In this document: piece after piece, positions 9,901-63,400 of the stretch | How positions within the stretch are numbered: the stretch's first letter is position 1 | How the letters are laid out: every line of letters begins with the position of its first letter | Assembly (NCBI RefSeq): GCF_004010195.1 | Contig: NC_057720.1 | Coordinates: 90,351,801 to 90,415,800 of the forward strand | DNA: 64,000 bases | DNA from: Chiloscyllium plagiosum | Lineage: Eukaryota | Reading direction: 5' to 3' | Notes under the pieces: generated by a model | The model's input: only the letters and a program-made list of their open reading frames with translations | What the model was told of the DNA's origin: nothing | The model's database searches: none | Position numbers and translations under genes: made by a program

Positions 9901-10650
9901 ACTCCCTTGGTCCTGCGCCCCTGACACTGCTGCGATCACTCTGTACTGACCTTCTCACACTGCAGCATTCCCTCAGAGGTGAGCCTCTGACGCCAGAGCA
10001 TTACCTCAGCACTAACACTTTGTGCAGCACTCCCTTAGTACTAGCCCTCTGACCGTGCAGCACACCCTCAATACTGACCCTCTGACAGTGCCGCACTCCC
10101 TCAGCACTGACCATCTGCCAGTGCAACGCTCACTCAGTGCTGGCCCTCTGACAGTGCGGCGCTCCCGGAGTACTGACCCTCTCACAGTGCAGCACTTCCT
10201 TAGTGTATTGACCATCTAACAGTGCAGCTTCCCTCAGTACTGACTCTCTCACAGTGTAGCACTCTCTCAGTACTGACCCTCTGACATTGCAGCACTCCCT
10301 CAGTACTGACTCTCTCACAGTGTAGCACTCTCTCAGTACTGACCATCTCACAGTGCAGCGCTCCCTCAGTACTGACCCTCTGATAGGGCAGCACTCCCTC
10401 AGTAGTGACTCTCCGACAGAGCAGAAGTCCCTCGGTGCTGATCGTCTGACAGTGTGGCACTGTCTCGATCTTGTATCTCTGATAGTGCAGCAATGCCTCT
10501 GTATTGACCCTCTGACAGTGCAGTGTTGTCTCAGTACTGACCCTCTGATGGTGCATTTCTCTCTCAGTCCAGATCCTTTCATAATGTGGCATTCCCTCTG
10601 GACTGAACATCTGACAGTGCACTGCTCCGTCAGTACTGACCCTCTGACAG
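3939..10650. repeat. 33-bp tandem satellite, about 6.7 kb and about 200 monomers
   Basis: Consensus CTGACAGTGCAGCACTCCCTCAGTACTGACCCT; gives 11-aa periodic ORFs in several frames (EGVLHCQRVST / VQHSLSTDPLT). Confidence 0.97.
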
Positions 10651-12960: not shown

Positions 12961-13254
12961 TGTTGAAATAAGATCATCTTTCATACTTGTAAAGTCCAAT
13001 GTGTATTGATCAACCTGACTATCCTTTCCTTATAAACTAACAGCTTCATGACACGAATCAGTTGAGGAAACCGTCTCTGAGCTGCTTCCAATGTAACAAT
13101 ATACTTTCTTCAGTGAGGGGATTAAATCTGTACACACTACTCCAGATGTGATCTCACTAAGATCCTGTACAGCAGCAGCAATGCTTCACCAGCCTGCTGT
13201 AAGGTTCCCAACGAGGTTACAGCAGGCTCAGCTCTCGCAGGGATACACAGGGTG

Positions 13255-13472
13255 AAAGTGAGGACTGCAGATGCTGGAAACCAGATTTTAGATCAGAGTG
13301 GTGCTGGAAAAGCACAGCGGGTCAGGCAGCATCAGAGAAGCAGGAAAATCGATGTTTCGTGCAAAAGTCCTTCATCAAGAATTGATGATGAATGGCTTTT
13401 GCCCGAAACGTCGATTTTCCTGCTCTCCGGATGCTGCCTGACCTGCTGTGCTTTTCAAGCGCCACTTTGATC
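13255..13472. mobile_element. Fold-back Penelope-derived element with degenerate hammerhead cores
   Basis: Inverted arms gtgctggaaaagcacagc...ccttcatcaag and gatgaatggcttttgcccgaaacgtcg...gctgtgcttttc. Confidence 0.8.
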
Positions 13473-21420: not shown

Positions 21421-22143
21421 CTGGAACCTGGAAGCCAACACACTGAATTGCCCGTAGTGTTAGGTAAGAGGTACACGTATGGGTGGGTTGCACTTCGGCG
21501 GGGCGGTGTGGACTTGTTGGGCCGAAGGGCCTGTTTCCACACTGTAAGTAATCTAATCTAAAGGGATAGTGGGAGAACAGGAGAAAGGGCCAACAAATGC
21601 TATATTGAATTGGGTAGCAAACTCGATGGGCCAAAGGGACTACTGCACTTCCTATTTTATAGCTTCCCAAGGTTAATTACGTGAACGTATATATTCATTG
21701 TGTGGGATAAGTGCATTGCGGAGATGTTTGAACATGAACGACAATGAGGAAGGCTCAATGTGTTGTATGGCCTACTCCATTCCTGATGTTTCTGTGCAGT
21801 CTGTGGGAAAGCTCTGTAAATGCTGTCACAAGCTCTCAAATGTTAGAAAGGAGGTCTCTGCAGTGTCGACAGGTCTGTGTTTCCCGTTACTTTTCCGTTA
21901 CTGAGGCTGGGGCCGGGTGTTCTGTCCGGTTTTATCCTTTAAGACCTCGAAACAGTTTAATACAATAGAGTGTCATGCTTGGCCGATTCAGAGACCATTG
22001 AAGAGTTTATCACATGTCTGTGTGTCTGCAGTCACATTTAGGCCAGACGAGGAAAGCATGGAGATTCACTTCCTGAAAGTACATTGGGGAAAGAAATTGG
22101 TGTGTACAATCGACATTGGCTTCAAGGGCGCTATTACCGACAG

Positions 22144-22725
22144 AGAAAGTGAGGGCTGCAGATGCTGGAGATCAGAGCTGAAAATGTGTTGCTGGAAAAG
22201 CGCAGCAGGTCAGGCAGCATCCAAGGAACAGTAGAATCGACGTTTCGGGCATAAGCCCTTCTTCAGGAATGAGGAAAGTGTGTCCAGCAGGCTAAGATAA
22301 AAGGTAGGGAGAAGGGACTTGGGGGAGGGGCGTTGGAGATGCGATAGGTGGAGAGATGTCTGTGCAGAGGAGATGACTTGGGATCTCCAGCATCTGCAGT
22401 CCTCACTTTCTCCTCGAAGATTTTAACCTACTGCGAATCCTCTTACAAGGATGCCTTCCTTGAAGAAGCTCTCTTCCTCCCTCTACAAGGATTTCAATGA
22501 GTCCCTCTCTCACTGCACACCCCAGGTCATCTCCTCTGCACAGACCACCCTCCACCGATCGCATTTCCAACGCCCCTCCCCCAAGTCCCTCCTCCCTACC
22601 TTTTATCTTAGCCTGCTGGACACACTTTCCTCATTCCTGAAGAAGGGCTTATGCCCGAAACGTCGTCTCCTGTTCCTTGGATGCTGCCGGACCTGCTGTG
22701 CTTTTCCAGCAACACATCTTCAGCA
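22144..22725. mobile_element. Fold-back Penelope-derived element (~580 bp) with TSD and two hammerhead cores
   Basis: About 200-bp inverted arms; flanking ctattaccgacag (22131-22143) and ctattactgacag (22726-22738). Confidence 0.85.
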
Positions 22726-23047
22726 CTATTACTGACAGCAGATTTTGCAGCTAATTATTTTGTCAATTGTTTTTAACTTCCAGAGTATTAACCTCGTCTG
22801 GATTAGTAATCCAGTGACATTTCCACAACAACACCATCTCCACATGGGGACCTATCAGAAACCTGGTTATTTTTGTGCTGCTCCGTCAAAACTATCTCCC
22901 ACCAATTTGACTGCTGTGATGGGACGGAAGGGGTGGCAAATGATCAGATTGTAGTTATTCTCCTCTGAGGGGACTGGACATAGCTGAGTAATTTTCCACA
23001 TTGCTAGGGATATGTCAGAGTTGGAGCTGGAATGAAACAGCTTCCCC

Positions 23048-23820
23048 AACGCCACACTCACAGGAATCCGATTCACAAGAGAAGAAGAAAAGGATAGCCA
23101 ACTCCCATTCCTAGACGTGATGGTACAGAGAACATCAAACGGAAAATTCACTACAAGGGTATTCAGGAAAGCCACACAAACAGACCAAGTCCTAAACTAT
23201 GAAAGTAATCACCCCAACACACACAAACGAAGCTGCATCAGGACACTATTCAGAAGGGCCACAACACATTGCAGTACACCAGAACTGCAAAAAGAAGAAG
23301 AGGAACACCTATACAAGGTATTCGCCAAAAACGGATACCCGCGCAACTTCATCAACAGATGCCTAAGAGAAAGACCACGGAACAAGGACATACCACAACC
23401 AAAAGGACTAGCCAAACTACCATCCATCAGGAGCATCTCAGAACTGACAGCCAGACTACTGCGACCCCTAGGACTCATAACAGCACACAAACCAACAGCC
23501 ACGCTCAGACAACAACTCACCAGAACGAAGGACCCAATACCCAACATGAGCAANNNNNNNNNNNNNNNNNNNNNNNNNNNNNNNNNNNNNNNNNNNNNNN
23601 NNNNNNNNNNNNNNNNNNNNNNNNNNNNNNNNNNNNNNNNNNNNNNNNNNNNNNNNNNTATAAACACCGGAGGAAACATCAAAGAAGCGCTTCGCAGGAG
23701 GCTCCCAAGCACTGAAGATGTCGCCTAGCCAGGGGACGAAACGTTTGCAACAAAAACTTCCAGCTCGGCGAAGAGAACCACAACAACGAGCACCCAAGCT
23801 ACAAATCTTCGAACAAACTT
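23048..23820 (+). mobile_element. Young 5'-truncated Penelope-like element (RT C-terminus, gap, 3' terminal repeat)
   Basis: Open frame IRFTREEEKDSQLPFLDVMV...VFRKATQTDQVLNYESNHP...LFRRA...KNGYP, the typical PLE RT thumb. The GIY-YIG part would fall in the N gap 23554-23658. Confidence 0.9.
23709..23748 (+). ncRNA. Minimal type I hammerhead ribozyme motif
   Basis: GCA-CUGAAGA-U-GUC(...)GAC-GAAAC-GUU-UGC: conserved core, helix II, 3-bp helix I and palindromic AACGUU in place of helix III. Confidence 0.75.
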
Positions 23821-38883: not shown

Positions 38884-39080
38884 GGAACACAGCAAGTCAG
38901 GCAGCATCAGGAGGTGTGGAATTTTACATTTCCGGTGTAAACCTTCTTCAGGACTCCTGCAGAAGGGTTACTCCTGAAACGTCGACTACTCCACCTCCTG
39001 ATGCTGCCTGGCTTGCTGTGTTCTTCCAGCCTCCCACCTGTCAACTTTGGATTCCAGCATCTGCAGGTTTTTTTTGTCTC
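38884..39080. mobile_element. Fold-back Penelope-derived element, second subfamily
   Basis: Inverted arms around ccttcttcagg-actc-ctgcagaagggttactcctgaaacgtcg. Confidence 0.7.
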
Positions 39081-40554: not shown

Positions 40555-42820
40555 GGTTTTTTTTAGTGCCTATTTTTCCCCAGCATCCATGTTGTGTGTG
40601 TTCAGGTGTGAGACACAGTGAAAGACACAAGGTGCATGAATCTTTATTCAATTTCCACCACCAGGAAGAAAAGAAACACCCGAGTGGCCAGTGACAAGCA
40701 CTGCCCTTCACATCGAAGGGCAATGCTGTGTGATCAAACAGTGAAGGGGAGAGCAGGGACTAAATCAAAATAGAGTTGGAGAGGGAAATAATGCACTCCA
40801 CTCCCTGTAGCACCCACCTCTCCCTGAACAACTCCAGGGTGTTGGTCGACACCGCGTGCTCCTTCTCCAAACACACCCGGGCTCTAACATAACCGCAGAA
40901 GGGGGCAGGCAGTCGGCCCGAATGACCCCCTCCACGGACCACTGCCTGGACCTGTTTATGGCCAGTTTGGCCAGGCCCAGGAGCAGAGCCACAAGGAGAT
41001 GTTCAGACCTGCCCTCCCTCCTCTGTACCGGGTGCCCGAAGATCAGGAGCGTGGGACTGAAGTGCAACCAAAAGCAGAGGAGGAGGTTTTTATGAAAATC
41101 AAACCCACACCCAATATACACATTGTCCACGGACTCTACAGCGCCACAGAACAAGCGGTTGGGCTGGGAGTCCGTGAACCACCGCAATCTGCTGTTGTCG
41201 GGGACCGCTGCGTGCAGCACCCTCCACAAGATCCCCGAGAGAAAGGGGGAGGAGCCCCCGGAGAGAGCCCTCTACTGGGGATCCCCACCGCCCGGTGGCA
41301 AATGGGCACGCCAAGGCCCGCCTTTTAACATCCTTAAATTAAAATTCCAGAGGTAGCTCAGATTGTGGGGCACAGGCTGCCGCGGGAAGTACGGGGCCTT
41401 GGGGCCAATGTGAGATTCCGTCCGGGCTGGGGTGAGCGCGGACGGGATCCCACTGCACACCTGAGCATCCTTCAACTGGTGCACTACGTCGGGTCGGAGC
41501 AATGCCGTTTTAAGGCATCGGATGGCGGAGGCCACGTACCAGACATTGGCCGCTGCCCTGCTCGCTATGTCCTGCGGCAGCGTCCAGCCCAGGCCCCCAG
41601 CACCCAGCATGTCCCCGACCCTGGTCACCCTCACTGCCATGGCCCTCCCCTCCGACAGCCACTCGAACCCACGAGTACGGAGATGCGGATTCCTGAGCAA
41701 CGGCTCCCTGAAGACAGCTGCTACTCCTGCCAGAGGATAGGCGCAACGTGATTCGACCATGTTTCAGACAGTGATCACGTCCGGGTAAAAGACAGGCAGC
41801 GTCTTGACGGCGACCTCCACGATGAACAGGAGCTGCATGTCGTAGTTGAGGTTACGCACCTGGCGGAAAAGTTACGTTGCCAGAGCACACCACCTCGGAG
41901 GAGGCTCGACATAAAGTTATCGCTGCAAGGTCTGAAGGCGGAATGTCACGCCCACCAGCGACTGACCATCCTACTCAATAGGGAGACTCCAAACCTGCAC
42001 AGCGACCCAGTGTATCTTTTTGTCCCAGAAGAAGTCGACCAACGTTCTCTGGATGTCAGCGACAAAGTCAGGAGGAGGGACCAAAGTGACCAGCCGCTAC
42101 CACAGCATTGCGGCCACCAGCTGGTTTATGACCAGCACTCGACTCCTGTAAGATAGCACTCGGAGCAGTCCTGTCCAGTGGTCTAGGAGAGCCGAGACTT
42201 TGACCTCCAGCTCCTGTGTTGGCCAGCCAGGATTCCTCAGCCAGGCTGAGGTAGACCCCCAGGTAGAGGAATTGGGTGGTACTCCAGCTGAACCCCTGGA
42301 ACTCCTCCAGCAGAGAGTCCACCCGCCACGGACAGACCAGTATTCCGGAGCATTTGGCCCAGTTGATCCTGGCAGTCGCGCCTGGCCTGGCAGTCGCACA
42401 TCCTCCTCAGGTCAGCCGGGTCGGTGAAAATGGGGAGCACGTTGTAGGCCGAGAGGACCACCCCCGTGCCTGCGCCACGCAGAACCAGCCTCAACAACCT
42501 CCTCCGCAAGAGGCGCAGGAATAGCTCCACGCACAGGGAATACAGCTGGCTGGACAGGGGGCAGCCTTGACGCACTCGCCTCCTGAAGCGAAGGGGCGCC
42601 GTCAGGGACCCGTTAACTTTAACCAGACACTCTGTGGCGGTGTACAAAAGTCGGATCCGGGCGACGAACTGCGTCCTGAACCCGAATGCCCGCAGAGTCC
42701 CGAGCAGGTACTCGTGATTGACCCTGTGGAATGCCTTCTCCTGGTCGAGAGATAGGAAGGCGCTCGGCAGACCAGCCTGTCGACAGAAATGGATCAGGTC
42801 CTGGTGGATGTTGTCATTTA
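40555..42820 (-). mobile_element. Tx1-like L1-clade LINE, RT to 3' end, frameshifted
   Basis: CLVKVNGSLTAPLRF...VRQGCPLS, YLGV, GRVLVINQL-like, WRVLHAAV (zinc-knuckle region), ELFRERW; T-run marks the poly(A) end. Confidence 0.85.
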
Positions 42821-44482: not shown

Positions 44483-44700
44483 GAGACTGTAGTGCTGGAA
44501 AAGTACAGCAGGTCAGGCAGCATCTGAGGAGCAATAGAATCGACATTTCGGGAAAAAGGCCTTCATTAGGATACCTGATGCAGGGGTTATGCCTGGAATG
44601 TTGATTTTCCTGCTCCTCAGATGCTGCCTGACCTGCTGTGCTTTTCCAGCACCGCACTCCCAACTCTGATCTCCAGGACTTGCAGCCCTCACTTTCTCCT
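44483..44700. mobile_element. Fold-back Penelope-derived element, degenerate
   Basis: Inverted arms plus ...cctcactttctcc tail; imperfect flanking duplication atggcttctcagtc / atgggtttcttagtc. Confidence 0.75.
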
Positions 44701-52799: not shown

Positions 52800-54162
52800 T
52801 TTGTAAATGTTTGGAGCTGGGATTGTTTTCAATTTTTGACTAAGACATTGGCGTATTTCCCCTATGGTGGGGGATTTCAATAATAGGGAACATGTTTTTA
52901 CAGTGAGAAGAGAAAAAAGTTTTTAAAATTGTACCAGTGACAACCTTTTACACAGAGAATGGTTTGTGTGTGGGATGATTTAAGGTGGATACTTCCAACC
53001 TTTAGAAGACATTTGGATAAGTGAATGAATATCAAATGTTTGGAAGGATATGGGCCAAGTACACACAGGTTGGATTAGTTTAGTTTGGGATAATGACTGA
53101 CATGGACTGGTTGGACCGAAGTGTCTGTTTCCATGCTGTATCACTCCATGACTCTATGACTATTTATCATTTTTTCTCAATATTAAACAGTGCTGTCGTG
53201 ATGCTCGAATGAACTGTTGATGTTTAGGTTGTGTTTGAGACTCTGCGAATATTTCCTTCAATGAGAGGAGGGACTAGTTCTCCAAGTTGCCCAACTAAAA
53301 AAATAAACTTTTCTCCAGCAATGTTGCTGAGTAGAGTTGTTTCTGCTGAGGCAGTGGTTATGGTTTGCAGTTGGCTTTCCACCAACTGGTCAACAGTGAG
53401 ACGAAATATCTTTAATCCACTGTAGAAACTCCACCTCCTTCCAGTAAATGAAACTGGGTGCTCAAGGACCTTTTCTGCAGTCAGCTTAATTGCTGCCAAC
53501 TATTGTATCTGGCCGATTAAAGGGAAAATGAATCGACTAAAGTAAAATCCTACCACACAAGCTATATTTTCCCATTTACTCACAATGGACACATTTCACT
53601 TGGCATTTCTTCGTTAAAAAGGAAAGTCACTGAATACAGCATTCACTGTATGACTATCAGAAAACAGGACATTGAATGCAATGACATTCTGGTTAGTTCA
53701 GCCTGTTTATTGAGTATCTTTAAAGCTCCTGAATATGAAGTTAATGGATCCAAAATCCCATATTGCAGGAACATTTGTTATCATCTCAAAGTAAATTAAC
53801 AAACTTGAATTGGTTCAAACTCGCATCACTTGTTGCACTATTCTCTGATTCATGCATCTCGTTAAAACTGAGTGGCCCTTTATACATGATTAATACTAGT
53901 GTAGAGAAACCGCAAATTTTTGCTGATTTTTATGATTTACCTGCCCCTGTCAGAGCTATCAGTGAGCAGAGAAATGTACTGTTTATGACCTACATTCGTG
54001 GTAATGATTATTGTAATACTCTTTAATTTAACCAAACACTCCTGATGTACCCAGACAGTTACCTGCAATGGTTTAGATGTTGATGATTAAAAAAAAACGT
54101 ATGGACTGTTCTGTTCTAGTTCATTAGATGCTCTTTCAAAAGTTTACCTAGGTGTTATGTAT

Positions 54163-54393
54163 GGAAATGTGTTGCTGGAAAAGCACAGCAGGTCAGGCAG
54201 CATCCAGGGAACAGGAGAATCGACGTTTCGGGCATGAGCCCTTCTTCAGGAATGAGGCCCTCATTCCTGAAGAAGGGCTTATGCCCGAAACGTCGATTCT
54301 CCTGTTCCCTGAATGCTGCCTGACCTGCTGCGCTTTTCCAGCAACACATTTCCAGCTCTGATCTCCAGCAATCTGCAACACCTCACTTTCTCC
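54163..54393. mobile_element. Young 231-bp fold-back Penelope-derived element with perfect 16-bp TSD
   Basis: cctaggtgttatgtat at 54147-54162 and 54394-54409; about 95-bp near-perfect inverted arms plus a ~40-bp unpaired tail. Confidence 0.92.
54267..54294 (+). ncRNA. Minimal hammerhead ribozyme core (mirror copy on minus strand 54222-54249)
   Basis: CUGAAGA-A-GGGC-UUAU-GCCC-GAAAC-GUC; helix I is weak (2 bp, then a mismatch). Confidence 0.65.
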
Positions 54394-54733
54394 CCTAGGT
54401 GTTATGTATCACTGCCAACTCACTTTTTGTTTCTCAGGCACACACTTTTCCTTTACTATGCATTTTGAAAAAAAAAAGATGCAAGGAGAGACATTCTGCA
54501 ATGTAAGGAGATGCTTCTAATGTCCGGATCGAAACTGCTTAGGGACATACACTCACATTCTGAACATAATCACTTTAGACATGCTCCATATTATGCTGCC
54601 TAAATTGAATTTAGAAACACAGATTAGAAAAATGGTATATTATTTTGTAATGTGAGAGAGACTTTGAGTGACAGCAAAAATAAAGTCACTAATTTTGTTG
54701 GCTAATAATATTATTGAAGTTCTTTTTAGCTTT

Positions 54734-55488
54734 ATTTATTTATTTTTTAACCCCCGCACTACCACCTAAGTGCAGTAGTGCTTATTTTTTTCCCCAGCAA
54801 CCATGGTGTGTGTGTGCAGGTGTGAGACACAGTGAATGACACAAAGTGCACGAATCTGTATTCAATTTCCACCACCAGGAAGATAGGAAAACACCCGGGT
54901 GGCCAGTGACAAACACTGCCCTTCACATCAAAGGACAGTGCTGTGTGATCAAAACAGTGAAGGGGAGGGTAAGGACTAAATCAAAATAGAGTTGGAGGGA
55001 GAAATGATGCACTCCACTCCCTGCGGCGCCCACCTCTCCCTGAACAACTCCAGGGTGTTGGTCGACACCGCGTGCTCCTTCTCCAAGGACTCTTTTTAGC
55101 TTTTTTTTTCAAAGGGCAGTGACACTCCTGTTTTTTTTTCTTTTAACCCCCACACTACCACCTAAGTGCGGTAGTGCTTATTTTTTCCCCCAGCACCCAT
55201 GGTGTGTGTGTGTGCAGGTGTGAGACACAGTGAAAGACACAAAGTACACAAATCTTTATTCAAATTCCACCACCAGGAAGATAGGAAAACACCCGGGTGG
55301 CCAGTGACAAACACTGCCCTTCACATCGAAGGGCAGTGCTGTGTGATCAAAACAGTGAAGGGGAGGGTAGGGACTAAATCAAAATAGAGTTGGAGGGAGA
55401 AATGATGCACTCCACTCCCTGCGGCACCCACCTCTCCCTGAACAACTCCAGGGTGTTGGTCGACACCGCGTGCTCCTTCTCCAAGGAC
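54734..55488 (-). mobile_element. Two tandem 3'-end copies of the Tx1-like LINE
   Basis: Each matches 40565-40870; both end at ...ctccaagga; tctttttagcttt at 54721, 55091 and 55489. Confidence 0.9.
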
Positions 55489-56036
55489 TCTTTTTAGCTT
55501 TATTCTGCTTGTGTTTGAAAGTAGGATTAAAGGGAGTTAACTTCTAATTGAATATTCTAAATATAATCACTTTGGACGCGCTCTGTATTCTGTTGCTTAA
55601 ATTGAATTTTGAAATGTTTAGTAAAAATTACATGTAATTTTGTAGTGCGACAGAGACTGGCAGTGTCCACGGAAAAAAAGCTCAATTGTTTTATTAGCTA
55701 GTAATATGTTTGAATTTTGATTTTAGTTTTATCTGCTTGTGAATGAATGTAGAATAAAGGGAGTTAACTTCCAACTGATTTTGTTTTGTTTTGTTTGAAG
55801 AAAATACTTGCAACTATCATCAGAAACAGACCTGAAACTACTCAAATTTACTTCCAAAGAAGGTATTCAGCAAAACAAATATCCCAAGATGTGTATATAT
55901 CCATGTTTAAACATAACCTCATGTAAATATACGAGCCCATGTGTTCGGGCTGTACAAGCTGATACCAGGATCCAGTCTCAGCCTCCAGCAGGACACCAAC
56001 AGGCGGAAGCTGTAAGTCTGCCCCTTCCGATGACCA

Positions 56037-56129: not shown

Positions 56130-56178
56130 ATGATTGTGTCGACAATTTTTCTCAGTTTGTTACTGACTTTCTTATCAT
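56130..56178 (+). CDS. IGHV: Ig heavy chain leader exon
   Basis: MIVSTIFLSLLLTFLS + 1 nt, then GTGAGT donor at 56179; intron ends in ttttctttttaaAG at 56306. Confidence 0.93.
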
Positions 56179-56306
56179 GTGAGTGTTTTTTGTTCAAGTC
56201 TCTCTTTGTTACTGTCTCAATGTTAGTCTACCCACAGGAATGTAAAAGACACAGCCATCATTTCATCAGCATTATTGCTCAAGGTTTATTTGTTTTCTTT
56301 TTAAAG

Positions 56307-56611
56307 GTGTCCACTCGGAGGTTGCTTTGTTTCAGCCAGAGGCAGAGACTGGCCATCGCGGAGGCAGCCTGAGACTGACCTGTAAAACCAACGGGTTCGA
56401 TCTTAACAGCAGCTACATGCACTGTGTCCGACAGGTTCCGGGAAAGGGCCTGGAGTGGTTGCTTTGGTACAATAGTCCATACAGCAATAACTATGCACCA
56501 ATGATTAGGGGTCGATTTACTGCGTTCAAAGACACTTCAGCCAAAATTTTCTTGTTGAACATGGTGGACCTGAGGATCGAAGACACTGCCATCTATTACT
56601 GTGCAAGAGAC
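56307..56611 (+). CDS. IGHV: IgM-type VH exon; open frame but probably non-functional
   Basis: (C)[32 protein letters not shown]...[15 protein letters not shown]...RFTAFKDTS...[11 protein letters not shown]. Both canonical Cys present; the FR2 Trp is replaced by Cys. Confidence 0.95.
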
Positions 56612-56649
56612 CATAGCGAGACGAACCAGGCTGGACCCGTTCAAAAACA
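56612..56649 (+). other. V-segment RSS (22-bp spacer) with mutated heptamer
   Basis: CATAGCG (56612-56618), 22 nt, TCAAAAACA (56641-56649); consensus is CACAGTG / ACAAAAACC. Confidence 0.85.
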
Positions 56650-57012
56650 GCTCGAGGGAACATTTTAGCAATTCCATCGTAAATTGGTGGTAAGCACGTG
56701 TTTTAAATACAATTATACCAACTGCGATCTCAAGCAGACCTCAGGCTGCCTCTTACAAAGCTATCAAAGAGGAAATGTGCAATTTAAACGAGCAAACTAG
56801 GTGATACAATGGGACAATGTTTTGGGCATGTCATATGTACTGCTAACACTTCCATCAATTAAATGCTTGGACAAAATGTTAGTTTTAATACATCTGACAG
56901 CTCAGGAAATCACTGCTAATTGTGTTATGTAAACTATGTCATTAATTCTAATCATGATCAGTACTAAATGGCTATCTCAAATGAAAATTGAGACCTAGAG
57001 TATAGAACAGAG

Positions 57013-60492: not shown

Positions 60493-63400
60493 CATTTACT
60501 GAGACATCCGTTAAACCGAGCAACTCCAGACAGAAGCATGTTTTCAATTCATACCATCCTTAAACATTTTCATACATTAAAAGCAGCAAACAAGAAAATG
60601 AACTTGCCCTAATTTTTTCAACAGAAATGCATTTCCGCACTCGAATGCAGTATTGGCTTTATGCAGTGCATGCAAAATCTCCACAGTTCAAGGAATGTTG
60701 TAAGAATATGTAAAAAAAAATAGCGAATAATCCATTTCCTCTGGGGCTGTGCTTTAATTGGCGATATGTCCCACCTCAATAATTTTGTTAAATACAATGA
60801 CTTATTAAGTTTATTAACTCAGTGGTTATTTATGTTCATTGTGAACACATTCTCGTTCACATTAATCCTCTGGTTAGTTCCTCTGATGAATGTTCAATTA
60901 CATAATATATTTGACGTGAGGAGTTAAGGAATGTATCTGCTAGGATTAAGTCTGTTGTACAGTTTGTTTCAGAGCTATCTCCGACTAACTTGTCAACGGT
61001 CCTGACCATTTGTAAACTGTCCAGTTCGGATACCTGAATCTCAGACAGTTTAATTTCATCTCGCGCTTCAAAACCACTTTTATCAGCCAGAAATGCAATA
61101 TTCGATTAGGTGCCTTAGAATTGAGAGTCCTGACGAAGTTGTACCAATCAGAACGAACGTTTCAGGAACAACAGGCAGATAACAAGAGTTTTGAAATTGG
61201 TTGTTGGCAACAAGAGATATTTGATTGAGCGAGGCGGAGGGAAATATGCTGCATATTTTCTTTATTCCTCAGTTGTGCAGGACATGTTTAGTGACACAAT
61301 GTAGAATCAGATATTATTTTGCATCTTATTATTTGAAAACCTATCATCAGCTTTTAATGTCACTGGCGATGGTCATAATATACTTCAATACATTTTAATC
61401 TATTTCAGACTAAGTAGACGATCTGGTGCAGCAACATTCACAGGGGAAAGAGGAAGGGAGTTCTAGGTTGAAATCCAGTGACAGTGAATTGATGGCAATG
61501 CAATTCCCAGTTTTATTCCTCTGTAGTTCCCATAGAGTTTGAACAAATCTGAGCTGTTGTCAAAGTATTCTTGAATCAATGTTGAAATGTTACTTACATT
61601 GTACAAAGATTCTGGAACAATCCCTGGTTGTTCGAAGGTGTTAATAACTAACATGGTTTATGCACTGTCAAACAGGTGGGCTTTGTTCTCCGTGATAGTG
61701 TCGAGCTCATTGTGTTCATGTCTGTTGTGATGTTGTAGTAGTGTCCCTGATCCTGAGCCAGGTGGCCTGTGTTCTCTTACAACCTGTGAGGGAGGTATGT
61801 AACACCATCTCTTATCAGGTTACTTCAGTGCAAGAAAGCAGATGTTTAGGTGTTTGTTGGAATTCCACTCAGAGGCCAATGAAATCTTTTCAGTTGCTGT
61901 CCTGACTTGTGTCTCTTAGATATTAAACAGAATTTTGGCGGTTAGCAGCTTTTTCCAGATCAGTATTTGTTCCCAATTTTTTGGGCATTGCTCGCTGGGG
62001 TTAGTGGAGTAAGTGCTCAAATAAATCCCAGCTTTTGACTTACTGTTCTAACAATATCATTTATAACTAATCTAGAATGAATCATTCTCGAAGCATATTT
62101 GATGAGATTATGCTTAGGCTGTTTTACTTTATGTAAACCAGTGCTGTAGCTGAATTTGATGTTCAGTACGATGGGGATTCCGCTGAATACAACACTTGCT
62201 AGCAGATGGTGATAGCTTTTCAACTGGTCTTCAATTGCTATCTCCGACCATCCAGTACCTCTGCTAAGAATCCTTGTTCCAACAGGAGTCAAGCAAACGT
62301 AATCACTGTTTATCTCAACGGGTGTGAGTTCTTGTGCCAAAAACATGAAAACAATTTGCTGACGAGGGGGGGTCTCTGGATGCGAAAGGTTAACCTTGCT
62401 TTCTCTCCACAGGAGCTGCCAGACCTGCAGAGTTTCTTCAGAAATTTCTGTCTTTATTTTGGTTTTCTAGCATTTAAAGTTTGTTGGTTCATTGAAAAAT
62501 GTTCTGTTCGATGAAACACGTTCTTCAGAGAAAAGATGCATTTGAACAAATTGCAAATGTTCAGAGATATTACATATCAGAGAATCATTGAATTTGAGCG
62601 CCCTGATCTCAAGCTGTAGTTTCACAAGAAACTATTATGAAGTAACAACACACTCCAGAGTGCAGTGGCTGCTGTAATTGGGTGGAAGTTATTTTGATCA
62701 CTCAAATATGGAATGTCAATGATCCTGTTCCAAATAATCAACAGAAGTTTTTTTTTAAAAGCATGTGTGAAACAATTAACTTTTTGAAATATTTTAACAA
62801 AAAGTGTTCACCACCATTGCTAGCTTAATGAATGACACAATGATAGGAAGGTGGGAGCAGAGGAGGGCACTCAGCCACTCGAGCTGTTCCACCAATTACT
62901 TAGATCATGGTGCATCTGTGAGCTAAATCCACAGGTCTCCCTTTGGCTAAAACTCTTAAATACCTTTGATTAACAAGCAAAAACTATCCCGGATTTACTG
63001 ATTCGACTGCCCATAACAAAGGGAGGCACCCTTTCTGAAATACATTTCTGTGGGTATTTAAAGGTACAAAATGAGACTGGAATTAATTGCTCATGAAAGT
63101 AAGCTTTAAATCTCTGACAATTTCCAATTGAAACATCCCAATAATCATATTCCATTAATTTAACACTATACTCCCCTGGAATAAAGAAATATAATGTGTG
63201 ATTGCCTTGCTAAAAATGAGGGAAGCTTCATTCCTATTATATGATTAAGAAATAGCTCTGTTCATTCAGTGAAGACACAGACAAATCACACAAAAGGAAA
63301 CCATGTCATCTTGTGGAGACACACAAGTGCCTCAAATAATTTTTAATTCTTCTAGTGGTTGTTTGAATCTCTAGACAAGTGTGGAAGTGTCAGACCTTTT

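Follow-up and report, generated by a model that had tools for sequence, protein, structure and literature searches.

Penelope-like elements (PLEs) have been described, in the portions of the literature available, as carrying an inverted pseudo-LTR (pLTR), a one-sided tail, and a TSD (PMC8557442, PMC3846280, PMC8969392). In EN+ PLEs with inverted pLTRs (Craig et al. 2021, PMC8557442; Arkhipova et al. 2013, PMC3846280), a 5'-truncated inverted copy lies directly 5' of the direct copy, accompanied by a tail of 30 to 40 bp on one side and by a TSD; the junction is palindromic, and the pLTR contains motifs resembling an Inr and a TATA box. The short shark insertions analyzed here, which we call stubs, have the same arrangement. 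They differ in lacking any ORF, in that the ORF-less form is the commonest, and in that both arms end at one boundary, whereas the accessible text of those two papers describes no fixed boundary and derives the junctions from self-priming on an antisense template. The family pattern bears on how PLE pLTRs and inverted repeats form, for which current proposals, as far as the available text goes, are self-priming on antisense RNA or circular templates.

The stubs also resemble three ribozyme-bearing systems. Metazoan minimal hammerheads (min-HHRs; Cervera and De la Pena 2014, PMC4209133) have, in the sections available, the same features as the shark cores: the core bases CUGANGA/GAAA/UH, an extra base at 9-10.1, the G10.1-C11.1 pair, and a palindromic 15.2-16.2. 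In Schistosoma, min-HHRs occur in pairs on opposite strands, 100 to 700 bp apart, and are ascribed to truncated PLEs, and the two-sided form is thus in print for other animals (PMC4209133, same sections). The shark insert differs in its helix II of 4 bp (7 to 8 in Schistosoma), its helix I of 2 bp (like D. virilis), and the spacing of its cores, just 17 nt; the available text does not list sharks among the min-HHR hosts. The Anolis element Poseidon PAc, studied in vitro (Frangieh et al. 2024, PMC11167929), parallels what we propose for the shark family: in the accessible part of that study, both strands are nicked and extended, two RT starts bound the tail, a hammerhead lies just upstream, uncleaved RNA is used, and the template 5' end sets the product length. 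The PAc ORF begins within the hammerhead and the PAc tail is coding, whereas the main ATG of the shark element lies past the tail, and genomic run-off stubs and cap marks are not described in that part of the study. Non-LTR retrozymes (bioRxiv 10.64898/2026.07.22.740005) are likewise non-coding, PLE derived, and equipped with type I hammerheads, with one chondrichthyan case reported in the text available; however, they are head-to-tail tandems with at least two same-strand cores, and the insert, which is head-to-head with one core per strand, falls outside that class.

Two further processes invite comparison, strong-stop synthesis in LTR retroelements and twin priming in L1. In the former, minus-strand strong-stop DNA is primed by a tRNA near the RNA 5' end, runs off, and undergoes template transfer; PLE priming differs in that the primer is target DNA. 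In L1 twin priming, two primers are supplied by two target nicks; compared with L1 inversions, the arms of a PLE stub are distinct in that both copy the same stretch.

Here, we analyzed a hairpin insertion in a 64-kb stretch of shark DNA (the window). The insert consists of two terminal copies of an abundant PLE in head-to-head orientation, and in our judgment it probably goes back to one abortive insertion that produced two run-off cDNAs from the capped leader of the element's mRNA. A literature search, light on subscription papers and excluding repeat databases and supplements, found no paper on short shark PLE hairpins, on Penelope together with pLTR and strong-stop, on twin priming in PLEs, or on the run-off reading.

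Layout and parentage of the insert

The insert spans 54163-54393 (231 bp; coordinates are window positions, and family positions are counted back from the element 3' end, -1) between two identical 16-bp repeats (Table 1), as originally predicted. In an unselected sample of the family, described below, the TSD mode was 15 to 16 bp. The arms, 54163-54257 and 54259-54353, are reverse complementary to each other at all but 3 of 95 positions and are separated by one base, which bears out the ~95-bp inverted arms with almost no loop of the original prediction; the unpaired 40-nt tail was absent from that description. Of the mismatches, one is a CpG change, another is an A at -80 that none of 82 sampled forward arms carried, and the third, at -112, is a common variant. 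Since these changes have no single direction, ADAR or APOBEC editing was rejected as their source. As RNA, the insert has a predicted folding energy of -200.7 kcal/mol (z = -24.5), and 0 of 200 shuffled sequences folded equally well. The tail corresponds to the stretch between two putative RT start sites, placed with the help of the available portions of PMC8557442 and PMC11167929. The description of the insert as young holds only in a relative sense: it belongs to the least diverged subfamily, whose copies average 1.6% non-CpG divergence, and older relatives in the window are 69 to 87% identical.

Table 1. Positions of the hairpin's parts and of a longer relative in the window
Feature	Position	Strand	Remarks
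Left TSD, 16 bp	54147..54162	+	CCTAGGTGTTATGTAT; 100% identical to right copy
Inverted arm	54163..54257	-	Element -38 to -133; without tail
Minimal type I hammerhead core	54222..54249	-	Loop II variant CUCAUG
Single untemplated C between arms	54258..54258		Possibly the base copied opposite the cap
Forward arm plus tail	54259..54393	+	Element -133 to -1; putative 5' leader of the PLE mRNA, through tail end
Initiator-like TCATTCC	54261..54267	+	A at 54263 (family -129), putative main transcription start
Minimal type I hammerhead core	54267..54294	+	Predicted cleavage 54294/54295
One-sided tail, unpaired, 40 nt	54354..54393	+	Family tail of ~38 nt plus two private 1-nt insertions
Right TSD, 16 bp	54394..54409	+	CCTAGGTGTTATGTAT
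Longer relative, same subfamily	22143..22727		Upstream pyrimidine-rich region and AT-rich box; tail continues to ORF start, ATG 22451

The parent element is abundant. A 25-mer from the tail had 49,529 exact genome matches (control, 0), a lower bound on the number of tails that amounts to about one per 70 kb across the 3.56 Gb, and a 14-mer from the core had 92,358; the window alone holds ~10 relatives. The locus itself is an ordinary one, one among thousands of similar stubs in the shark genome. In longer copies the sequence upstream is a pyrimidine-rich region, preceded by the terminal part of a GIY-YIG endonuclease ORF, in agreement with the Penelope origin that had been proposed. The frame in these long copies reads ...YIGETGR...REH... 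(Pfam GIY-YIG, E = 0.001, below the cut-off). Homologs numbered 5 among 57 candidates, the named ones being from Chiloscyllium punctatum and Rhincodon typus; the whale-shark homolog (P0005) has a weak RVT_1 match (E = 9e-5, below the cut-off) followed by GIY-YIG above the cut-off. In this genome no full RT-EN frame was readable, because the middle of the ORF is N in every long locus fetched; apparent long open frames proved to be runs of N in 8 of 8 loci fetched and were discarded. Past the tail, the sequence leads into an ATG-initiated frame in 28 of 30 loci, with the ATG ~38 nt on in longer copies. With a GIY-YIG frame upstream and an ATG frame downstream, the insert corresponds to the pLTR region of an EN-bearing PLE and to the 5' leader of its ORF, and, as partial tandem logic would have it, the pLTR and the beginning of the transcription unit overlap. 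At one locus (L222; G000:C11:80511011-80511853), units of ~58 bp from the PLE ORF start form a tandem array.

The mode of insertion also agrees with the original prediction. TSDs flank 51 of 85 sampled copies, 47 of them with lengths of 13 to 19 bp, as is fitting for target-primed retro-insertion, and the 40-nt one-sided tail together with TSDs of 9 to 19 bp (mostly 13 to 16) argues against a DNA MITE.

The 5' boundary and the putative transcription start

We sampled the family without selection by taking the first 93 of 100 listed tail matches, which lie in one 5-Mb stretch of contig C1. Ninety-two were recorded, and 7 of the 92 tails were set aside for N at their 5' edge, leaving 85 copies. 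More than half of these (44/85) start at -133 to -124, with a mode at -128, at a density of 4.4 per nt versus 0.07 per nt at -200 to -140. One of 85 copies starts at the cleavage site (-97), and 9 of 85 reach past -140. Genome-wide, 17,744 core matches extend to -136, versus 92,358 core 14-mers. An adjoining inverted arm was present in 47/85 copies, 44 of which are short hairpins. The outer ends of the inverted arms fall at -27 to -43 in 37 of 47 cases and their inner ends cluster at -121 to -133. The inverted 5' copy without the 30- to 40-bp tail thus holds for the family, and the inverted arm of the insert itself ends at -38. Both arms of the insert reach -133, 4 nt upstream of the putative start. 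Given the sharp boundary in this sample, an inversion point placed at random was rejected. Three older hairpin stubs of the family in the window (13,251-13,468; 38,888-39,030; 44,493-44,699) are 69 to 77% identical and have arms that meet just before the hammerhead core, which shows the boundary to be old.

An initiator-like A lies four bases ahead of the core, and in long copies an AT-rich box lies ~30 nt upstream of it. The initiator consensus is YYANWYY, which we take the TCATTCC of the insert to fit. An untemplated G is a known trace of RT copying the cap. Genome-wide, G precedes the initiator A at 10,476 places, versus 7,267 for A plus T and ~2,950 G expected from flank composition (the template base is C); this G count is an upper bound, as part of it is templated by inverted arms at hairpin junctions or by TSDs. 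Among fetched loci without a recognized inverted arm, G preceded the A in 10 of 15, versus 5 of 28 neighboring starts (P = 0.002); some of the local cases are part of a TSD or a short arm. The central C of the hairpin is not diagnostic for this copy, given that its weak control found 7 places with a C/G center versus 4 with an A/T center.

In one poly-A single-cell run, a library ill-suited to this purpose of which ~2% was read, 2,202 reads aligned, and neither starts nor ends of molecules accumulated, the predicted cleavage site included. In these reads the family appears on both strands, read depth is some ten times greater past the boundary than before it, and 16 reads contain a hairpin junction, a pattern that fits copies embedded in host transcripts. 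The family pattern also implies thousands of near-perfect 95-bp inverted repeats that may be sources of double-stranded RNA in shark transcripts.

Segments that include the ORF start behave similarly at their 5' ends: 7 of 27 begin at -133 to -124, and 6 of 27 extend upstream past -133. At 23 of 30 ORF-start loci the piece is followed by a terminal unit, 10 of which begin at -126 to -133, suggesting that a run-off end can jump to another template. Chimeras of this kind, an ORF-start piece followed by a terminal unit, were recorded at L038, L150, L008, L211, L217-L220, L223, L229, L231, L232, and L235. These chimeric insertions would be template jumps from the run-off end.

Hammerhead cores and predicted folding

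Each strand carries a core of the form CUGAAGA-A-GGGC-loop-GCCC-GAAACGUC. On the plus strand, its parts are CUGAAGA, an extra A, a 4-bp helix II, GAAA, a CG palindrome, and UC; C3 of the core lies at family position -125, and cleavage is predicted at -98/-97. Helix I consists of two pairs (C-G and U-A), then a U.U, plus one A-U. The cores had been called intact, which is right for their positions and conserved core bases, but helix I has only 2 pairs. By comparison, helix I of min-HHRs is mostly 4 to 5 bp, and 2 bp in D. virilis (PMC4209133, sections available). An Rfam search, proposed earlier as a check, returned 13 matches at E <= 5, none of them to a hammerhead family; these matches, mostly to microRNA hairpin models, all lie far below gathering scores and were taken as shape artefacts. 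Cleavage at the boundary by a type III hammerhead was ruled out on inspection, as only 4 nt separate the boundary from C3.

The ATG in loop II of the plus-strand core opens a frame at 54285-54362 (+; MPETSILLF..., 26 codons in the majority form) that stops in the tail and is a possible upstream ORF; the main ORF of the anole element begins at a similar place. Elsewhere in the window, hammerhead-like cores with other helix II sequences lie at 23,712-23,745 and 62,359-62,391 and probably belong to other PLE families.

In the folding model, forming the hammerhead within the full insert costs 61 kcal/mol (+) or 56 kcal/mol (-), versus ~2 kcal/mol in a lone arm. Either strand transcribes the antisense arm ahead of its core, and the two cores, being on opposite strands, cannot meet within one transcript. 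The ribozyme cores of the stub are passengers, which the hairpin would silence. Core conservation, set beforehand as part of the refuting test, was no higher than elsewhere (14/697 substitutions in the core versus 73/4281 in the rest; P = 0.53). The core mutates at the same rate as the rest, as dead copies should, and this does not count against selection acting on the motif where elements are active. Only 5 of 92 sampled tails had an intact core in each arm.

Proposed formation of the stubs and the VH gene near the insert

In the DNA the initiator-like A is followed by the hammerhead core and the tail, and longer copies add the ORF ATG ~38 nt on. This order suggests a mechanism in which the source element would be transcribed from the initiator A, 4 nt ahead of the core, and the GIY-YIG endonuclease would nick both target strands ~16 nt apart. 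RT would then prime at the far end of the tail from one nick and at its near end from the other; each cDNA would run off the 5' end of the uncleaved RNA after ~95 to 130 nt, often copying the cap, and the two cDNA ends would be joined and filled in. Lacking the upstream promoter region and the ORF, the resulting stub would be a dead end. We lean, with modest confidence, toward a general form of this reading, in which PLEs start replication as retroviruses do, only without a tRNA primer: strong-stop cDNA would be made at both nicks and a template jump would be needed for more, and most shark events would abort. The cap-marked leader copies and head-to-head hairpins left behind, in their tens of thousands, would show where transcription began and from which two sites RT started, and also that the hammerhead had stayed uncut. 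If cap-marked run-off cDNAs do arise from both nicks, the shark genome is a natural archive of PLE intermediates on a very large scale.

The main competitor to two cDNAs is a single one, or an antisense template as in Arkhipova et al. (2013), that snaps back and is copied into the inverted arm. Self-priming is already published for palindromic PLE junctions (PMC3846280, available text), and the arms of one hairpin usually agree, with discordance at diagnostic sites of 3/31, 9/39, and 4/40 versus 30 to 49% expected if the arms were independent. Rare variants are sometimes common to both arms (nine in L239, and three shared rare sites elsewhere); those of L239 point to one RNA or one source locus and are compatible with fold-back for some copies. 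Several junctions also look like a snap-back via TTC/GAA that leaves a 5-nt loop, or contain helix II fillers such as AGCCC or GGGC. However, among 42 short hairpins the inverted arm extends beyond the forward arm in 20, falls short of it in 12, and matches it in 10 (of 47 hairpin rows, 5 were left out, namely 3 long ones and 2 from one two-tailed locus, and the ends of six overlapping junctions were placed by hand), and a single fold-back of a tail-primed cDNA cannot yield an inverted arm that extends further than the forward one. Mirror-image junctions and helix II fillers are found on either side; a few hairpins, such as L141 and L145, have arms that differ at two diagnostic sites; and the 1-nt center of the present hairpin is not a snap-back loop. 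Moreover, a cDNA primed at the near end of the tail has no tail template, and a second priming is required anyway. We consider fold-back an unlikely but still appreciable source of the paired arms. Far less probable is that the 5' boundary reflects hammerhead cleavage or splicing rather than a transcription start: a few ends do fall at -97 to -102 (forward, 2/85; inner, 4/47), and an intron end in D. virilis maps to helix I (PMC4209133, available text), but the end peak lies 30 nt upstream of the cleavage site, the boundary has no AG, the copies have no common upstream exon, and the G excess indicates a cap.

It is also quite improbable that the stubs propagate separately, as a non-autonomous hairpin or a ~130-nt SINE-like unit mobilized in trans by PLE protein. 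Such a unit, self-propagating and minimal, was part of the original prediction, and it would account for the sharp 5' end, the majority of ORF-less units (44/85 sampled copies are short hairpins), and the ~4,406 matches in which both arms reach -128 within 16 nt, which make the two-core form common. The haplotype with A at -112, too, occurs in 8 of 45 long copies but in none of 60 short ones, a difference that may reflect escape of its differing tail from the sampling pattern. Yet junctions vary widely, even among the best whole-hairpin matches, and the exact center of this hairpin recurs at 7 places among which haplotype, outer end, and age all vary, indicating that it arose repeatedly. The 60 short and 45 long copies have the same three common haplotypes in like proportions (P = 0.60) and an equal divergence of 1.6%, so that stubs share the sources of coding copies rather than forming a lineage of their own, and a stub has no sequence upstream of the initiator. 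SINE- or MITE-like families would have ends, junction, and lineage variants shared across many copies, a combination not seen here. As improbable as cleavage or splicing is a functional RNA switch, toggling between double-stranded RNA and a self-cleaving dimer, or a regulatory element of the VH gene. Conserved bases are kept in both cores, and the poly-A RNA reads contain family copies from both strands, some of them with a hairpin junction. The proposed switch nevertheless founders on the 56 to 61 kcal/mol by which the full hairpin buries each core, on the ordinary conservation of the core among copies, and on the rarity of intact cores on both arms. Published min-HHR monomers showed no cleavage and dimers cleaved weakly (PMC4209133), and the anole PLE ribozyme requires protein (PMC11167929), in the portions of both papers available; with this many copies, a position near a gene is to be expected. 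Two run-off cDNAs joined head-to-head remain the preferred origin of the insert. At one further locus (L028:1253-1501), ~250 bp of unrelated DNA was captured between inverted arms, inside a 15-bp TSD.

The leader ATG of the VH gene lies at 56130, 1,721 nt downstream, in line with the 1.7 kb given originally, and the V exon matches Pfam V-set (E = 1.4e-12). With about one tail per 70 kb genome-wide, a special link to the VH gene is not supported. The VH segment (56130-56650, with leader and intron) has Cys at the framework 2 Trp position (MHCVRQ) and an RSS heptamer that starts CAT. Framework 2 of VH segments has a conserved Trp, and the RSS heptamer begins CAC; the Cys and the CAT suggest that the segment may be non-functional. 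Between the hairpin and the VH promoter, a block of ~370 bp is tandemly duplicated (95% identical; about 54,760-55,500), and a third copy (91%) lies at 40,564-40,870.
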